Assembly: GCA_964579635.1 (NCBI GenBank)
Contig: CAZOFV010000003.1
Span: forward strand, 2,768-66,767
Reading direction: 5' to 3'
DNA: 64,000 bases
Source: an uncultured Candidatus Saccharibacteria bacterium
GTDB lineage: Bacteria > Patescibacteriota > Minisyncoccia > Phycocordibacterales > VMEP01
Shown here: one piece after another, positions 5,817-28,668 of the stretch
Layout of the letters: the number at the start of each line of letters is the position of its first letter
How positions within the stretch are numbered: position 1 is the stretch's first letter
The notes under the pieces: model-generated
What the model saw: the letters and a program-made list of their open reading frames with translations, nothing else
What the model was told of the DNA's origin: nothing
The model's database searches: none
Translations under genes and position numbers: made by a program

Positions 5817-6716
5817 ATGACCAATCCATATACTCATCAAACTCAAAATATATTGAAGACTTGGTTTATCATGACCGTGTTTTTTGCTGTGGTGATTGGT
5901 GTGGGGTGGTTTGCTAGTTTGTATTTTGGAAATCAAAGTATTTTGTATATCGCTATTGCTTTCAGTATTGGAATGAATATCACAAGCTATTGGTTTTCAG
6001 ATAAGATAGTTCTTTCGATGACGGGAGCAAGAGAGGCAACGAGGGCTGAATTTTTCAACCTTTATACAACAGTAGAAAATCTCTCAATTACAGCAGGTCT
6101 CCCGATGCCAAAACTTTACGTGATTGACGATCAGGCGCCGAATGCTTTTGCGACAGGAAGGAATAAAGAACATTCAGTTGTTGCAGTGACAACGGGTCTT
6201 TTGCAGATTCTTGATAAAAATGAACTTGAGGGCGTGATAGCTCATGAACTCTCACATATTGGTAACAAGGATATGTTGGTCTCCACTGTTGCTGTTGTGC
6301 TTGTTGGTTTCGTCACTATTATTTCCGATATGGCGATACGAGCATCTTTTTTTGGTGGCAACAATGACCGTGATAATAAAACAAGCGCAGTGATTATGGC
6401 CATAGGGATTGTTTTAATGATCCTTGCTCCAATTGCCGCAACACTTCTTCAGCTTGCTATTTCTCGCAAACGGGAGTTTTTAGCAGATGCTTCAGGAGTG
6501 CTTTTAACTAGATACCCAGAGGGCCTTGCAAATGCGCTTAAGAAAATTGGGGGATATAGCCGTCCAATGATTAAGGCTAATAACGCGACCGCCCATCTTT
6601 TTATTTCAAACCCATTTGGTTCCAGTGAGGTATCTAATGACAAGATTCCTTTCTTAGTAAAAATTTTTTCAACACATCCACCAATAAATGAACGTGTTAA
6701 GTCTTTGGTAGGGTAG
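5817..6716 (+). CDS. htpX: Zinc metalloprotease HtpX (peptidase M48)
   Basis: Multi-TM protein with an HELSH zinc-binding motif (HEXXH) and M48 architecture. Confidence 0.85.
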   Translation: MTNPYTHQTQNILKTWFIMTVFFAVVIGVGWFASLYFGNQSILYIAIAFSIGMNITSYWFSDKIVLSMTGAREATRAEFFNLYTTVENLSITAGLPMPKLYVIDDQAPNAFATGRNKEHSVVAVTTGLLQILDKNELEGVIAHELSHIGNKDMLVSTVAVVLVGFVTIISDMAIRASFFGGNNDRDNKTSAVIMAIGIVLMILAPIAATLLQLAISRKREFLADASGVLLTRYPEGLANALKKIGGYSRPMIKANNATAHLFISNPFGSSEVSNDKIPFLVKIFSTHPPINERVKSLVG

Positions 6717-6728
6717 AATGACTATTAC

Positions 6729-7349
6729 ATGTTTATTTTTAAAATAAAAAGTTCTCTCTGGAGTGAAATAACAGAAACAAAAGTAAAGGTTGGTATCAAA
6801 GATAGAGCGATAAGTTTTATTTTTGAACCACTCCTTCCTTCTTTTGTTGTTCCAAATCATATTACCGTTTTTCGTTTTATTTCCATTCCATTTGTTACTT
6901 TTCTTTTGTTTTTCGAGTATTACGCAACAGGCTTCGCCTTGTTTGCTGTATCGGCTTTTAGTGATGCTCTTGATGGCGCTATTGCGCGTACTCGCGGGCA
7001 AGTTACAGATTGGGGAAAATTGTTTGACCCACTCGCCGATAAACTTTTAATCGGTATTTCTGGTTTTATTTTGGTCTCGCGTTTTTTGTCGCCAATTATT
7101 ATTACTACGGTGATCTTAATTGAAGTACTTCTTATTTTAAATGCTTACTACCGCAAAAAATTTCGAGGGGAAGTTGTTGAGGCACGTGGGGTAGGAAAAA
7201 TAAAAATGGTTTGTCAGTCTTTTGGAGTAGGTCTATTGGGGATTTACGCTATCTCTCAAATACCAATTCTTCTTTTTGTTTCGTTGTTATTTTTCTATAT
7301 CGGTATAGTTCTCGCGCTTATAAGTCTTTTTGTTTATCGGTCAATTTAG
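6729..7349 (+). CDS. CDP-alcohol phosphatidyltransferase family protein (PgsA-like)
   Basis: DALDGAIAR...G...DPLADKL matches the D-x2-DG-x2-AR...G-x3-D-x3-D signature. Multiple TM helices. Confidence 0.75.
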   Translation: MFIFKIKSSLWSEITETKVKVGIKDRAISFIFEPLLPSFVVPNHITVFRFISIPFVTFLLFFEYYATGFALFAVSAFSDALDGAIARTRGQVTDWGKLFDPLADKLLIGISGFILVSRFLSPIIITTVILIEVLLILNAYYRKKFRGEVVEARGVGKIKMVCQSFGVGLLGIYAISQIPILLFVSLLFFYIGIVLALISLFVYRSI

Positions 7350-7390
7350 TTTTGCGTTATTAGTTTTTTTCTGCAACAATGCTTTTTCAC

Positions 7391-7470
7391 GGAGGTGTCG
7401 CATAGCTAGGTCCCCGCCCGTACCGAACGGTACGTTCGGGCGGGTAGTGCGCAGACCTGGAAAGCCCGCT
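7391..7470 (+). pseudogene. Degenerate 5' fragment of tRNA-Ser with a 33 nt hairpin insertion in the D-loop region
   Basis: GGAGGTGTCGCATAGCTAGG then a CCCGCCCG...CGGGCGGG hairpin, then TAGTGCGCAGACCTGGAAAG identical to the downstream tRNA-Ser. No T-arm or 3' acceptor. Confidence 0.5.
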
Positions 7471-7505
7471 TTCTTTTAGTAGTTGTTTGTAGATTAATTA
7501 AATAT

Positions 7506-7590
7506 GGAGGCGTCGCATAGCGGTCTAGTGCGCAGACCTGGAAAGTCTGTGTGGGGCAACCCACCGAGAGTTCGAATCTCTCCGCCTCCG
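7506..7590 (+). tRNA. tRNA-Ser (anticodon GGA), type II with a long variable arm
   Basis: GGAGGCG...CGCCTCCG acceptor stem, anticodon loop CUGGAAA, variable arm GTGGGGCAACCCACC, T-arm GAGAGTTCGAATCTCTC. Discriminator is G and there is no encoded CCA. Confidence 0.85.
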
Positions 7591-7810
7591 CAGTTTTGAA
7601 ACGCAGTGAAAAACTGCGGAGGCGAGCAATGTGTCTGCACACATTGCGTGAGAGATTCGAACGCCGGAGCGATATTTTTGTAGCAACAAAAATCGCGAGG
7701 CGCGGCTAGCAAAAATTTTGTGACGACAAAATTTTATGCGGAGCCGAATCTCTCCGCCGAATCAGAGTGTTCGGCGAATAAAATATTCGTAACCGAATCT
7801 CTCCGCGCCA
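7587..7810. repeat. Cluster of short hairpins and three extra copies of the tRNA-Ser 3'-end motif CGAATCTCTCCGC
   Basis: A perfect 10 bp inverted repeat CCGCAGTTTT/AAAACTGCGG lies directly after the tRNA. A second GGAGGCG follows, then palindromes CAATGTGT..ACACATTG and ATTTTTGT..ACAAAAAT. CCGAATCTCTCCGC recurs at about 7744-7757 and 7793-7806. Confidence 0.5.
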
Positions 7811-7887
7811 AAAATCTAATATAAATAAGGCTAAATATACATAAAAACACGTGAATTTGTTATAATTCACGTTAATATATAAGTCTT

Positions 7888-8391
7888 ATGATTTCTGAGA
7901 ATTTAATTAAAGACAAAAAAGGTTTTACCCTCATCGAGCTTCTTGTTGTTATTTCTATCATCGGCATTTTGTCTTCCATTGTAATTTCAACGTTGAACAC
8001 AGCGAGAGTGAAGGCTCGTGACACAAGAAGATTAGCGGACATGAATCAACTAGTTAAGGCAATAGAGATGTATCATACTGATAACGGATTTTATCCTGCG
8101 TGCGGTGTTGCAGATTATTGTAACTCTACTGCTTCCGGAGGTTATGTGAATTTAAATACTTTAGACGTAAAACCAAATTATCTTAGCGCTACACCAGTTG
8201 ATCCAACAAACATCGCTGCTCAATATGGTTATTATTATGCGAGAAGATATAAACCAACTGGAAGTACTCCACCATACATATATACTGGTAGTGATCAAAA
8301 TTATATAGTTGGAACTAGGTTAGAAAATAGTTCCAACCCTGTATACTCAGGTTGGGATAATCCAAATATTAATCTTTACAAAGGTCAGTAA
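7888..8391 (+). CDS. Type IV pilin / pseudopilin-like protein with prepilin-type N-terminal cleavage/methylation domain
   Basis: KGFTLIELLVVISIIGILSSIV is a class III signal / N-methylation motif. Confidence 0.75.
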   Translation: MISENLIKDKKGFTLIELLVVISIIGILSSIVISTLNTARVKARDTRRLADMNQLVKAIEMYHTDNGFYPACGVADYCNSTASGGYVNLNTLDVKPNYLSATPVDPTNIAAQYGYYYARRYKPTGSTPPYIYTGSDQNYIVGTRLENSSNPVYSGWDNPNINLYKGQ

Positions 8392-28384: not shown

Positions 28385-28668
28385 TCCCGTACAAAATAAT
28401 TTAAGCTATGTTTTATACATATGTACTAAAAAGTAAGAAAGATGGTAAGTTATATACGGGGTATACAAATAACTTACGGAAACGTTTTAAAGATCACAAT
28501 GATGGAAAATCAACGTATACTAAAGGAAGGGGTCCTTACGAACTAATTTATTATGAAGCATGTCTCGCGGAAGAAGATGCAAGGTCGAGAGAATTATATT
28601 TAAAAGCTGGGAGAGGTAAGCGTTTTATAAAGTCTCGTTTAAAACGTTTCCTATTTTGTACGGGATGA
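28382..28668 (+). mobile_element. About 287 bp element bounded by terminal inverted repeats TGATCCCGTACAAAATA / TATTTTGTACGGGATGA, carrying the GIY-YIG ORF
   Basis: Perfect 15 bp TIR (ATCCCGTACAAAATA) at about 28382-28398 and 28652-28668. Its only cargo is the 86 aa GIY-YIG gene. Related empty copies are at 30431-30557 and 24816-24947. Confidence 0.6.
28408..28668 (+). CDS. Stand-alone GIY-YIG nuclease domain protein (UPF0213-like)
   Basis: YTYVLKS...GKLYTGYTNNLRKRFKDHN...ELIYYE matches the GIY-(10-11)-YIG catalytic motif with R and E residues. The last codons are encoded by the right TIR. Confidence 0.75.
   Translation: MFYTYVLKSKKDGKLYTGYTNNLRKRFKDHNDGKSTYTKGRGPYELIYYEACLAEEDARSRELYLKAGRGKRFIKSRLKRFLFCTG

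Follow-up and report, generated by a model that had tools for sequence, protein, structure and literature searches.

A tRNA-Ser(GGA) gene of Patescibacteria with probable relics of nuclease cassettes and a structured tRNA-end-mimicking element on its flanks

In the 64-kb stretch of DNA analysed here (the window), a live tRNA-Ser(GGA) gene is probably flanked by relics of tRNA-targeting nuclease cassettes and by a still-constrained RNA element that mimics the end of the tRNA. The probability of this reading is estimated at roughly 0.55. Integrase-driven islands classically land in tRNA genes. This locus and its relatives point to a second route, by nuclease cassettes, in the very small genomes of Patescibacteria. 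The comparison set comprised ~120 related tRNA-Ser loci, which are not independent samples, a limit that applies to all locus counts and p values below. Many of them are short metagenomic contigs, whose repeats can yield chimeric assemblies; L125 and L006 are suspect in this respect. The four compared segments of the window are 100% identical in two independent assemblies, L001 and L002 (blastn-short). Thus, the region is not an assembly artefact.

Anatomy of the tRNA-Ser locus

The features of the locus are as follows.

7350..7390, + strand: intergenic leader that separates the first tRNA fragment from the gene for CDP-alcohol phosphatidyltransferase
7391..7404, + strand: orphan tRNA-Ser 5' fragment, positions 1-14 (GGAGGTGTCGCATA); direct repeat D3, alignment A3
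7405..7444, + strand: GC-rich palindromic insert in the D-loop of the apparently dead tRNA copy; inverted repeats I4 and I6
7445..7464, + strand: orphan segment from the D-stem 3' strand to the anticodon loop (~position 38); direct repeat D2, alignment A3
7465..7505, + strand: 41-nt spacer and leader of the live tRNA; 31/31 nt common to L004
7506..7590, + strand: intact class II tRNA-Ser(GGA); ARAGORN, and Rfam RF00005 at 55.6 bits
7583..7624, + strand: hairpin hp1, in which the tRNA acceptor 3' strand and the trailer CAGTTTT pair with AAAACTGCGGAGGCG; inverted repeat I1
7626..7647, + strand: hairpin hp2 with the loop CTGC; inverted repeat I11
7650..7762, + strand: core of the F element, with two hairpin arms enclosed by a closing helix (GAGAGAUUCG / CGAAUCUCUC); covariance model R1
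7745..7758, + strand: direct copy no. 1 of the tRNA 3' end; exact 13-mer, repeat family D1
7755..7789, + strand: two small hairpins in a 49-bp extra unit, read from the sequence
7794..7806, + strand: direct copy no. 2 of the tRNA 3' end, the outer 3' orphan; exact 13-mer

ARAGORN and Rfam both call tRNA-Ser(GGA) at 7506-7590/91 as the sole tRNA in the region, in agreement with the first-pass annotation, which had placed an intact tRNA-Ser there. It is 85/85 nt identical to the tRNA of L003 and L004. Judged from the sequence, it is the only functional-looking tRNA-Ser copy at the locus. Genes for GroES/EL, LemA, an M48 peptidase, CDP-alcohol phosphatidyltransferase, a pilin and a DUF192 protein, and a 765-aa ORF read as ribonucleotide reductase, lie within ~5 kb. 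No integrase is present in this range, as had been noted. The pilin and DUF192 genes, which had been called cargo-like, are syntenic host genes in relatives. The leader at 7350-7390 shows 41/41 identity with L003 and L004, against 57-76% at third codon positions of neighbouring genes; it is possibly the promoter region of the tRNA. The scan for promoters and terminators on the + strand of 7200-8000 found none, and no sigma-70-like site.

Upstream of the tRNA, 7391-7470 corresponds in a MAFFT alignment to positions 1-14 and about 17-38 of the tRNA. The fragment does align to the tRNA, as the claim of an upstream pseudo-5'-half with a GC hairpin required. The orphan 5' fragment (7391-7404) differs from the live tRNA by one acceptor-strand substitution, and 7391-7406 matches tRNA positions 1-16 at 94%. 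The palindrome proper of the D-loop insert is 7413-7444. Its insertion point, after A14, is common to the window, L004 and both copies in L003 (alignment A3), and in L004 a further insert is nested within the loop of the hairpin. The following segment, 7445-7464, is a 20/20 copy of TAGTGCGCAGACCTGGAAAG, and the tRNA homology stops past CTGGAAAG. Equivalent orphan 5' fragments were found by motif scan at 12 of 101 related loci; the one-substitution variant of the window is the thirteenth, added by eye. The spacer at 7465-7505 sits where relatives carry a GIY-YIG ORF, and its last ~27 nt resemble the tRNA leader of L125. Among related loci, the GC hairpin and spacer are seen in the window and L004 only, and are thus lineage-specific.

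A split, permuted or intron-bearing tRNA assembled from the upstream half and the downstream ends was rejected: a CACCTCC acceptor 3' strand that would match is lacking, the fragment has a broken anticodon stem, and the locus already holds an intact tRNA. A tRNA intron (group I or bulge-helix-bulge) is not supported: the tRNA is uninterrupted and there is no group I/II match in Rfam; the insert size, far below that of a group I core, also argues against a group I intron.

Downstream of the tRNA, its 3' end recurs twice as an exact direct copy and once inverted. The 64-kb window contains CGAATCTCTCCGC at exactly three sites (7573, 7745, and 7794), where 0.06 would be expected. The two direct copies substantiate the extra 3' ends reported earlier, while the inverted copy, a perfect 13-nt match to the T-loop and T-stem (7570-7582 / 7650-7662), had been missed. 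Hairpin hp1 is a perfect 15-bp inverted repeat (7583-7597 / 7610-7624). The second GGAGGCG, reported before as an acceptor start, is located at 7618-7624; it is acceptor-5'-like and forms one arm of this inverted repeat. hp1 is also present in L003, L004, L151 and L179, and analogous long hairpins of a different sequence occur in L174 and L133. hp2, described before as a perfect 10-bp hairpin, has a stem of 9 bp (7626-7634 / 7639-7647). It branches off exactly between the acceptor-like and the T-stem-like strands. Its stem covaries and the CTGC loop is retained in L005, L089, L174, L146 (tRNA-Cys) and L115.

Direct copy no. 1 comprises the 3' part of the T-loop, the T-stem 3' strand and the first 4 nt of the acceptor 3' strand, and doubles as the 3' strand of the F closing helix. 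At the same site, relatives have the full CGAATCTCTC followed by the acceptor strand and G. L004 has the 49-bp unit (7758-7806), and L003 lacks it. Its small hairpins are CGCCGAA...TTCGGCG at 7755-7776 and CGAATA...TATTCG at 7775-7789. In L004, direct copy no. 2 appears in degenerate form (CCGAACCATCCGCC); L003 does not have it. Among 97 loci, direct copies are seen downstream of the tRNA at 19 and inverted copies at 12, and neither is seen upstream. A retroviral-type primer-binding site was considered for the antisense segment and rejected; the segment is complementary to the trailer and contains no complement of CCA.

GIY-YIG cassettes at tRNA genes of relatives

Close relatives, 87-90% identical to the window in the neighbouring protein, differ in the state of this site. 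In L003 and the suspect assembly L125, a GIY-YIG ORF (PF01541, E = 3e-17) lies between the orphan 5' fragment and the tRNA. Here, the dead copy has the D-loop hairpin insert, and the ORF is located just 3' of the insert, at the D-stem 3' strand. Only the hairpin-bearing orphan is found in the window and in L004, and no GIY-YIG ORF is present at 7384-7830 of the window. The same contrast at one conserved target is seen between L071, with the ORF, and L078, without it. L078 corresponds to the L071 element minus its ORF and parallels the ORF-less state of the window.

At least 8 metagenomic loci have GIY-YIG ORFs of two subfamilies immediately 5' of tRNA-Ser. These ORFs come after an orphan 5' tRNA fragment and conserved hairpins, and they run into the tRNA, ending at the TAG of the D-loop. 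In an unbiased homologue search, the C-terminal motif G-x-[FVIL]-[AGT], which is the translated 5' end of tRNA-Ser, was found in 81 of 104 cluster representatives. The fusion of ORF and tRNA was confirmed at L185 (tRNA-Ser TGA) and L187 (Daviesbacteria), both of which also have the conserved hairpins hpA and hpB plus a 13-nt orphan. The same GIY-YIG layout is observed at tRNA-Met(CAT) in L102.

The GIY-YIG proteins are 79-86 aa long and consist of the catalytic domain only, with no sequence-specific DNA-binding domain. Their best relatives in PDB are UPF0213 proteins, which are functionally uncharacterized, so that sequence-specific homing by the GIY-YIG proteins is putative.

In L139, tRNA fragments are nested in the order type 1 5', type 2 5', intact type 3, type 2 3' and type 1 3'. 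L189 likewise contains nested fragments of different tRNA types. The presence of GIY-YIG cassettes and nested tRNA fragments in relatives suggests that the tRNA-Ser site is a recurrent target of nuclease-type mobile elements and not of integrases. Among 79 unique but related loci, GIY-YIG ORFs are associated with the 5' orphan (6/6 vs. 2/73, p = 1e-7), the 5' orphan with the 3' orphan (p = 0.005), and the 3' orphan with the inverted copy (p = 2e-6). No GIY-YIG relative was found in viral contigs, and all 15 matches of the hpB 18-mer in these contigs are chance matches in GC-rich phage coding sequence; a phage vector was thus rejected. The literature, as far as it was covered, which was incompletely, contains no account of GIY-YIG cassettes or such elements at tRNA genes of CPR.

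The F element downstream of the tRNA

The name F element is given here to 7618-7762 of the window; it is a structured element of ~110-145 nt. The F core ends in the first 3' tRNA copy. Covariance model R1 scores the F core of the window at 120.6 bits on the + strand and 29.8 bits on the - strand. In alignment A2, which was fitted to the model, compensatory changes on both sides are observed in 27 of 33 pairs, and paired cells amount to 94.4%; the corresponding values are 72% for shuffles and 42-57% for slid controls. RNAalifold gives 19 of 33. On the tRNA-sense strand, G.U outnumbers A.C by 25 to 9. The unit folds alone into the family shape, as do units from four lineages, and the folding of the region is far more stable than that of shuffles (z = -9.7).

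In full F copies, the terminal helix is acceptor-like, 7 bp long and followed by an unpaired G on the 3' side; in the window, this helix is shortened to 4 bp. Because the element is bracketed by complementary and direct copies of the tRNA 3' end, its transcript can close into an acceptor-stem-like helix with an unpaired G. The identity of F between the window and L003 or L004 is 98.2%, against 57-77% at neutral sites and 57-76% at flanking third codon positions. F is thus, as read from alignment and folding, a constrained structured element and not a set of decayed scars. It is probably co-transcribed with the tRNA, as the G.U excess and its constant orientation indirectly suggest, and kept by selection on RNA structure. 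F may be a non-autonomous companion of the GIY-YIG cassettes; its high conservation could equally reflect a host function.

In Rfam 15, only tRNA and chance-level matches, and no intron, ribozyme, tmRNA or Y RNA, were obtained for the whole window at the gathering threshold, for 7300-7900 at E up to 10, and for eight related loci at E up to 1. Hammerhead-like CUGAUGA motifs in some hairpin loops have no Rfam match backing them.

F units are present at 18 of 115 unique tRNA-Ser loci, after 5 of 23 motif matches were dropped as unrelated or duplicate. They are always in the orientation of the tRNA and directly follow it. The first-pass annotation had proposed a search in relatives for indels bounded by the tRNA 3' repeat. 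Two such indels exist: the 49-bp unit absent from L003, and a clean 162-bp F indel between L071 and L172. Copies of the F core are also found beside tRNA-Asp (L007) and tRNA-Leu (L115), in a D-loop insert (L006, a suspect assembly), and away from tRNAs (L177 and L156). The F flanks at tRNA-Asp match the local tRNA. L102 (tRNA-Asp) and L146 (tRNA-Cys) show an F-like flank layout without a core detectable by the model. Tandem F units are present in L179, and the covariance model finds one F copy in the 64-kb window. The association of F with GIY-YIG is weak (3/6 vs. 12/73 among the 79 unique but related loci, p = 0.08); L172 has GIY-YIG only and the window has F only. A MITE or another small transposon was rejected, since the terminal repeats are derived from tRNA (Ser, Asp and Cys) and are not intrinsic to the element. 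Variable duplications of 14-49 nt and the single copy in the window are also against a MITE.

Origin of the locus and comparison with known systems

It is proposed that small selfish elements lacking an integrase repeatedly invade the conserved loops of tRNA genes in Patescibacteria, and that each invasion leaves or brings one intact tRNA. The upstream part of the locus (7391-7505) would be a dead earlier tRNA copy, positions 1-38, from which the GIY-YIG ORF has been lost. The downstream part would be an ORF-less F element (7618-7762) plus a truncated second unit extending to 7806. A GIY-YIG nuclease may break an uninvaded tRNA gene, and repair may copy the cassette, with the tRNA-derived fragments serving as portable homology arms. 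The resident tRNA gene would be split into orphan ends, a complete tRNA in or beside the cassette would preserve viability, and successive rounds would produce nested fragments. Within this course of events, the anatomy, recurrence in relatives, fusion of ORF and tRNA, nesting, presence/absence differences, covariation and conservation are observed; we infer that the GIY-YIG protein cleaves tRNA genes, that repair copies the cassette, and that F is transcribed and processed.

Several points stand against the cassette explanation. The link to GIY-YIG at the window locus comes from relatives. An element that carries its target in intact form is not obviously protected from its own nuclease. The lengths of the duplications vary (10-14 nt at the 5' end and 14-49 nt at the 3' end), a variation that is not predicted by any one known mechanism. 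Nor does the explanation account for the inverted copy that is found systematically at the left end of F.

It is possible, though doubtful, that F is a host-beneficial ncRNA, tRNA-like, ancestral, co-transcribed with tRNA-Ser and cut free by tRNA-processing enzymes, with losses mediated by repeats and with the upstream fragment as an unrelated pseudogene. The strong covariation, the sense-strand G.U excess, the 98% conservation against 57-77% at neutral sites, the constant orientation and position directly after the tRNA, and the acceptor-like terminal helix of full copies, 7 bp and an unpaired 3' G, would all be expected under it, and the repeats permit clean loss. However, F is present in only about one-fifth of related tRNA-Ser loci and co-occurs with orphan fragments, the terminal helix of the window is only 4 bp, and tandem copies exist in L179. 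The F cores beside other tRNAs, in D-loop inserts and away from tRNAs argue for mobility. Tandem units in L179 are also compatible with purely local rearrangement without any mobile element, by slippage, fold-back synthesis or tandem duplication at a palindromic tRNA gene. The tRNA arms are palindromes, and the perfect 15+13 nt inverted copy by the tRNA end resembles a fold-back product. Such rearrangement is nevertheless very unlikely as the source of the locus, given that a conserved non-tRNA core is common to distant lineages and different tRNAs, that GIY-YIG ORFs with hpA and hpB recur at the same junction, and that nested fragments come from foreign tRNA types.

The first-pass annotation regarded the locus as a decayed integration hot spot. 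The related loci do show a hot spot at tRNA-Ser, with partial tRNA duplications on the flanks of inserted DNA, while an integrase as the agent is not supported. Under this interpretation, tyrosine or serine integrase elements entered the 3' end of tRNA-Ser repeatedly and were later deleted, leaving attL and attR. Direct repeats from the T-loop to the 3' end flank the inserts and bound the indels, as att sites do, and a large serine recombinase gene lies right beyond tRNA-Ser in L185, at this one locus only. Yet integrase scars remain quite unlikely. No integrase is found within ~5 kb in the window, nor next to any of the loci with F, and host genes follow directly. The DNA between the repeats is not random remnants; it is a conserved structured unit of 110-170 nt that recurs in relatives, covaries and, in the case of F, is 98% conserved. 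For the downstream part, this is the outcome that the first-pass annotation had itself named as speaking for a structured RNA and against att scars. The 5'-end duplications and the inverted copy are not integrase products, the inserts are only 110-350 bp, and the intact elements at this site in relatives encode small GIY-YIG nucleases, not integrases.

A bolder but unlikely possibility is that the F core, hpA and hpB are guide-like RNA scaffolds that steer a minimal GIY-YIG nuclease to tRNA genes, that is, RNA-programmed homing. The nuclease has no DNA-binding domain of its own, and the adjoining tRNA-derived segments always match the local tRNA. In a weaker version, F may be a novel RNA that mimics tRNA ends, is set free by RNase P and 3' processing, and spreads between tRNA genes.

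If the cassette reading is true, minimal GIY-YIG cassettes borrow the TAG of a tRNA as their stop codon, leave orphan ends, and can swap in a foreign tRNA. This would account for pseudo-tRNA fragments and odd "introns" in tRNA regions of CPR, and would provide a mechanism for horizontal replacement of tRNA genes. F, an unannotated structured element that copies the acceptor and T-stem of the adjoining tRNA, would be a new RNA family, possibly with a new target-finding mode for a domain-only nuclease. Hairpin-rich GC islands beside CPR tRNAs should not be annotated as terminators or att scars by default.

The closest known system with a GIY-YIG gene at tRNA genes is seen in T4-like phages. The Seg family consists of free-standing GIY-YIG homing endonuclease genes, and SegB, in the tRNA cluster of T4, drives preferential inheritance and segmental amplification of tRNA regions (PMC2330249, PMC13096335). 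Amplification of this type would yield repeated partial tRNA copies. As with Seg, the GIY-YIG gene here lies among or beside tRNA genes and its presence differs between close relatives. Unlike Seg proteins, which have DNA-binding domains, the proteins here have the catalytic domain only, and their nuclease activity is predicted. The ORF extends into the tRNA and takes its stop codon from the TAG there, the cassette lies between orphan tRNA ends, and the host is a cellular Patescibacteria lineage, with nothing related in viral contigs.

Insertions in rRNA genes of CPR also carry GIY-YIG ORFs and resemble neither group I nor group II introns, so that they represent non-intron insertions in structural RNA genes (PMC11270868). 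They lie within the rRNA genes, which they interrupt, and are presumably excised from the transcript; tRNA genes are mentioned 0 times in that paper (PMC11270868). The host group is the same, whereas the functional tRNA here is uninterrupted and the interrupted copies look dead.

The att sites of tyrosine integrases are reportedly located in the T-loop or anticodon loop of tRNA genes (Williams 2002 NAR). As in tRNA-targeting integrative elements, a duplicated tRNA segment flanks the insert, the tRNA is regenerated, and the repeat extends from the T-loop to the 3' end. The absence of an integrase, the small inserts, the 5' duplication, the inverted copy and the variable repeat are differences.

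The omega RNAs of TnpB and IscB are guide-plus-scaffold RNAs of transposon-encoded nucleases. In resemblance only, the elements here have a structured core followed, and also preceded, by a segment matching the flanking tRNA ends (Ser, Asp and Cys). No TnpB or IscB gene is present here; the nearby nuclease type is GIY-YIG, and GIY-YIG nucleases are, to our knowledge, not known to be RNA-guided.

The tRNA-like domain of tmRNA and the bacterial Y RNA YrlA are tRNA-like RNAs with a mimic of the acceptor/T-arm. Similarly, the terminal helix of F is identical to a tRNA acceptor stem, stacked on a T-stem-like helix, with a discriminator-like unpaired base. Unlike these RNAs, F has no Rfam match, its T-loop is replaced by a two-armed core of ~90 nt, and its acceptor sequence follows that of the neighbouring tRNA.

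The tRNA-Ser locus and its close relatives

The window belongs to a low-GC, Parcubacteria-like genome of Patescibacteria. The local gene order is GroES/GroEL, LemA, M48 peptidase, CDP-alcohol phosphatidyltransferase, the region 7384-7830, type IV pilin and a DUF192 protein. ARAGORN and Rfam found a single tRNA in the region, and the anatomy described in the first-pass annotation (a tRNA, an upstream copy, a GC palindrome and 3'-end repeats) was borne out. Isolated 5' or 3' tRNA fragments are called orphans below.

Features of the region (window positions)
6729-7349: CDP-alcohol phosphatidyltransferase gene, upstream neighbour
7391-7406: copy of tRNA positions 1-16 (94%)
7413-7444: GC palindrome separating the two upstream tRNA-copy segments
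7445-7464: copy of tRNA positions about 20a-38 (20/20)
7506-7590: tRNA-Ser(GGA)
7618-7762: F element, a hairpin-rich structured unit
7618-7624 (GGAGGCG) and 7650-7662 (GAGAGATTCGAAC): perfect 15+13 nt complement of the tRNA
7626-7647: 9-bp hairpin interrupting that complement
7745-7758 and 7794-7806: 3' orphans, both starting in the T-loop
7888-8391: type IV pilin gene, downstream neighbour

The sequence CGAATCTCTCCGC occurs exactly three times in the 64 kb, every time in the region (0.06 expected). The GC content of the region is 45-56% against a background of roughly 30-40%, its folding z is -9.7, and the four compared segments match at 100% in two independent assemblies. The complement, which was overlooked in the first pass, covers the T-loop, the 3' strand of the T-stem, the 3' strand of the acceptor and the trailer of tRNA-Ser. 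The single 5' orphan covers positions 1-38; positions 39-55 of the old tRNA copy are absent from the window.

Genome matches were closest for L003, 'Parcubacteria group bacterium LiPW_30', with 90% protein identity, and L004, an uncultured MAG, with 87%. In more distant relatives (L005, L008, L010, L013-L015), the tRNA lies only 10-125 bp after the transferase gene, without fragments, which is taken as the ancestral state. The site is a hot spot: no two of the four closest genomes agree in the transferase-tRNA interval, and all of them share the D-loop insertion point, which lies after A14. L003 shows a 5' orphan with a D-loop insert, a 79-aa ORF for a GIY-YIG protein (PF01541, E = 3e-17), the intact tRNA between the arms of a 12-nt inverted repeat, another tRNA copy without its first 7 nt but with a D-loop insert, and the downstream element seen in the window. 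L125 has the GIY-YIG ORF and a different downstream sequence. L004 is similar to the window, but its GC hairpin holds a further, nested insert and its outer 3' repeat is degenerate. The 41 nt before the first tRNA fragment (7350-7390) are 100% identical with L003 and L004, against 57-76% at neighbouring third codon positions, and no promoter-like site was detected in this stretch.

GIY-YIG ORFs fused to tRNA genes

A metagenome scan with the variable-arm/T-arm sequence yielded about 120 tRNA-Ser loci. Two GIY-YIG subfamilies, ~33% identical to each other, are encoded directly upstream of the tRNA on the same strand (L003, L125, L076, L071, L107, L118, L124 and L172). In the L071 type, the orphan TGGAGGGTTCGCAT is followed by a pair of conserved GC hairpins, named hpA and hpB, then by the ORF and the intact tRNA. 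The last codons of this ORF, GGA GGG TTC GCA, coincide with tRNA positions 1-12, and the ORF stops at the TAG of the D-loop. Among 104 clusters of GIY-YIG homologues collected without reference to tRNAs, 81 carry the tRNA-like C-terminal ending G-x-[FVIL]-[AGT], such as GGFA, GGVA and GRVA. The ORF-tRNA fusion is characteristic of this protein family and no sampling accident. The GGVA ending corresponds to the 5' end of the window's own tRNA, GGAGGCGTCGCA.

The L071 layout is repeated at L185, a tRNA-Ser(TGA) locus, and at L187 from Daviesbacteria, and L189 has a degenerate variant. An equivalent design is seen at tRNA-Met(CAT) in L102, where a 10-nt duplication ends in the TAG of U8-A9-G10. 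L078 is the L071 element without the ORF (orphan, two hairpins, 21 nt, tRNA), which is the state upstream of the window's tRNA. Of 79 unique loci with enough flank, the 5' orphan is present in 6/6 with GIY-YIG versus 2/73 without it. In L187 (1746-2990), two hairpins come after the fused tRNA-Ser, and beyond them lie another GIY-YIG ORF, this one free-standing, and an ORF for an HNH endonuclease; three nuclease genes are thus clustered around one tRNA.

The F element

An F unit directly follows the tRNA in about one fifth of the tRNA-Ser loci.

Parts of the F element, 5' to 3'
Part 1: hairpin, often the acceptor 3' strand and trailer paired with their own complement
Part 2: another hairpin, its stem covarying and its loop CUGC
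Part 3: GAGAGATTCGAA
Part 4: core made up of two hairpin arms and conserved single-stranded stretches (GRCGGAGCG ... CGCGAGNCGG)
Part 5: direct tRNA copy from T-loop to discriminator, sometimes 5-30 nt further into the trailer

Exactly one F unit (162 bp) distinguishes L071 from L172, by insertion or loss. In L179, two F units stand in tandem after one tRNA-Ser (5937-6260, reverse strand); the second stops after the core, without the terminal tRNA copy.

Ten F cores align well, and RNAalifold predicted a closing helix and two arms; compensatory changes are seen at 19 of the 33 pairs. In 19 covariance-model matches, 94.4% of cells are paired versus 72% in shuffles (0/500 as high as observed) and 42-57% when the controls were slid, with both-side changes in 27/33 base pairs; these pairing figures are somewhat generous, because the model guided the alignment of sequences that are themselves related. 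On the tRNA-sense strand, G.U (25) exceeds A.C (9), and the few arm substitutions in the window, L003, L004 and L179 all yield G.U pairs. This points to F acting as an RNA and not as a DNA hairpin. Isolated F units (L179, L174, L151 and the window) fold alone, with the MFE structure equal or nearly equal to the centroid (z -5.7 to -7.0). In the predicted shape, the terminal helix reproduces the tRNA acceptor stem exactly, over 7 bp (4 bp in the window), and leaves a 3' G unpaired; a CUGC hairpin branches at the position of the tRNA body, and a T-stem-like helix of 9-10 bp and two arms complete the fold. F has no match in Rfam. The core (for example at 7662-7710 in the window, and at the equivalent places in L071, L007 and L115) contains an invariant internal loop, a bulged G and tandem GA opposite GA (..C-G-GA-N...N-GA-G..). 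Covarying helices lie on both sides of this loop, which looks similar to a protein-binding motif of the kink-turn kind.

The covariance model also detected F cores at tRNA-Asp (L007), at tRNA-Leu (L115), within L006's D-loop insert, and at sites not next to a tRNA (L177, L156). The bracket architecture without a model-detected core is found at tRNA-Asp in L102 and tRNA-Cys in L146. The bracketing complement and direct copy always come from the local tRNA (GACGGGACTCGAA / CGAGTC..GTCACTTGC for tRNA-Asp; GCGGGAATTGAA / AATTCCCGCCCAGGCCT for tRNA-Cys). Judged from sequence, F appears to be mobile or modular, and constrained. The first-pass annotation took the region for a likely decayed integration hot spot, but F is no decaying scar: the window F is 165/168 identical to that of L003 and to that of L004, far above flanking third codon positions (57-76%) and the next intergenic stretch (73-77%). 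Such identity would therefore reflect either purifying selection as strong as that on the tRNA or recent exchange.

Nested fragments and a proposed origin of the cassettes

L139 (reverse strand, oriented coordinates 108-476) contains three layers of class II tRNA sequence with different acceptors: a GGAGGCG-type tRNA-Ser 5' part whose D-loop bears a hairpin, a GGAGGAG-type class II 5' part, an intact GGAGGGT-type tRNA-Ser, the GGAGGAG 3' end and the GGAGGCG 3' end. Acceptor-stem extensions, ATGGC...GCCAT, bracket each inner unit. In L189, an intact GGAGGGT-type tRNA has a 5' orphan of the GGAGAGA type before it and a 3' orphan, TCTCTCC, after it. Cassettes carrying a tRNA and inserted one after another into whichever gene was resident at the time would produce this mirrored order, which shows that whole tRNA genes are imported. 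The 5' and 3' orphans are found together (p = 0.005, 79 unique loci), and the window, with one 5' and two 3' orphans, fits the nesting pattern. In L006 (3401-3487), a seemingly intact tRNA-Ser has the 5' acceptor GGAGGCG and the 3' strand ACCCTCC, resulting in two mismatches; it is either a recombinant of two tRNA types or a chimeric assembly at the contig end.

The simplest account is a homing-endonuclease logic. The GIY-YIG nuclease would cut tRNA genes at their most conserved loops, and repair would copy the cassette with the tRNA fragments as homology arms. The cell would survive because the intact tRNA is regenerated or imported. Loss of the ORF would leave dead tRNA copies bearing hairpins, and repeated rounds of insertion would lead to nesting. 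T4 SegB is a precedent both for a GIY-YIG gene at work among clustered tRNA genes and for amplification of tRNA regions driven by a nuclease (PMC2330249, PMC13096335). The inverted tRNA copy may be a product of fold-back repair, retained because its pairing with the orphan 3' end may close the RNA and prevent the orphan from disturbing tRNA folding. The homing account has weak points. The GIY-YIG proteins contain nothing beyond the catalytic domain, and the structures nearest to them are those of UPF0213 proteins. The tRNA duplications vary in length, the association of F with GIY-YIG is weak (p = 0.08, 79 unique loci), and neither the self-immunity of the cassette nor the inverted copy follows from the account. 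A bolder reading, with only a slim chance of being right, is that conserved hairpin scaffolds and locally matching tRNA segments act as guides for this domain-only nuclease.

The integrase scars proposed in the first pass do not fit the locus, since no integrase is present within ~5 kb of the locus, 5' duplications are present and the core is constrained. Elements of the integrase type may use the same tRNA in some genomes: in L185 (1820-3261), the GIY-YIG-fused tRNA-Ser(TGA) faces a convergent gene for a large serine recombinase (Resolvase + Recombinase + Zn_ribbon_recom). The tRNA-intron and MITE categories do not fit the locus either, and it belongs to no Rfam family beyond tRNA. In its working it is most like free-standing homing-endonuclease cassettes. 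Within its own host group, the closest counterpart is a set of GIY-YIG insertions in CPR rRNA genes, which are not introns; the study describing them makes no mention of tRNAs (PMC11270868). No description of tRNA-fused GIY-YIG cassettes or of the F element was found in the literature searched. The wider pattern exposed by the window is the valuable part; the window alone is of moderate value, because it holds only an ORF-less relic and one F copy.

Elsewhere in the window, an 86-aa GIY-YIG ORF (28408-28668), 47-49% identical to the tRNA-fused proteins, lies between two methyltransferase-like genes. The edges of the insert (28385-28664) carry a perfect 14-bp inverted repeat, TCCCGTACAAAATA / TATTTTGTACGGGA, with ATGA on each side. 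It looks like an insertion of roughly 280 bp into an overlapping stop/start ATGA, with both genes preserved.
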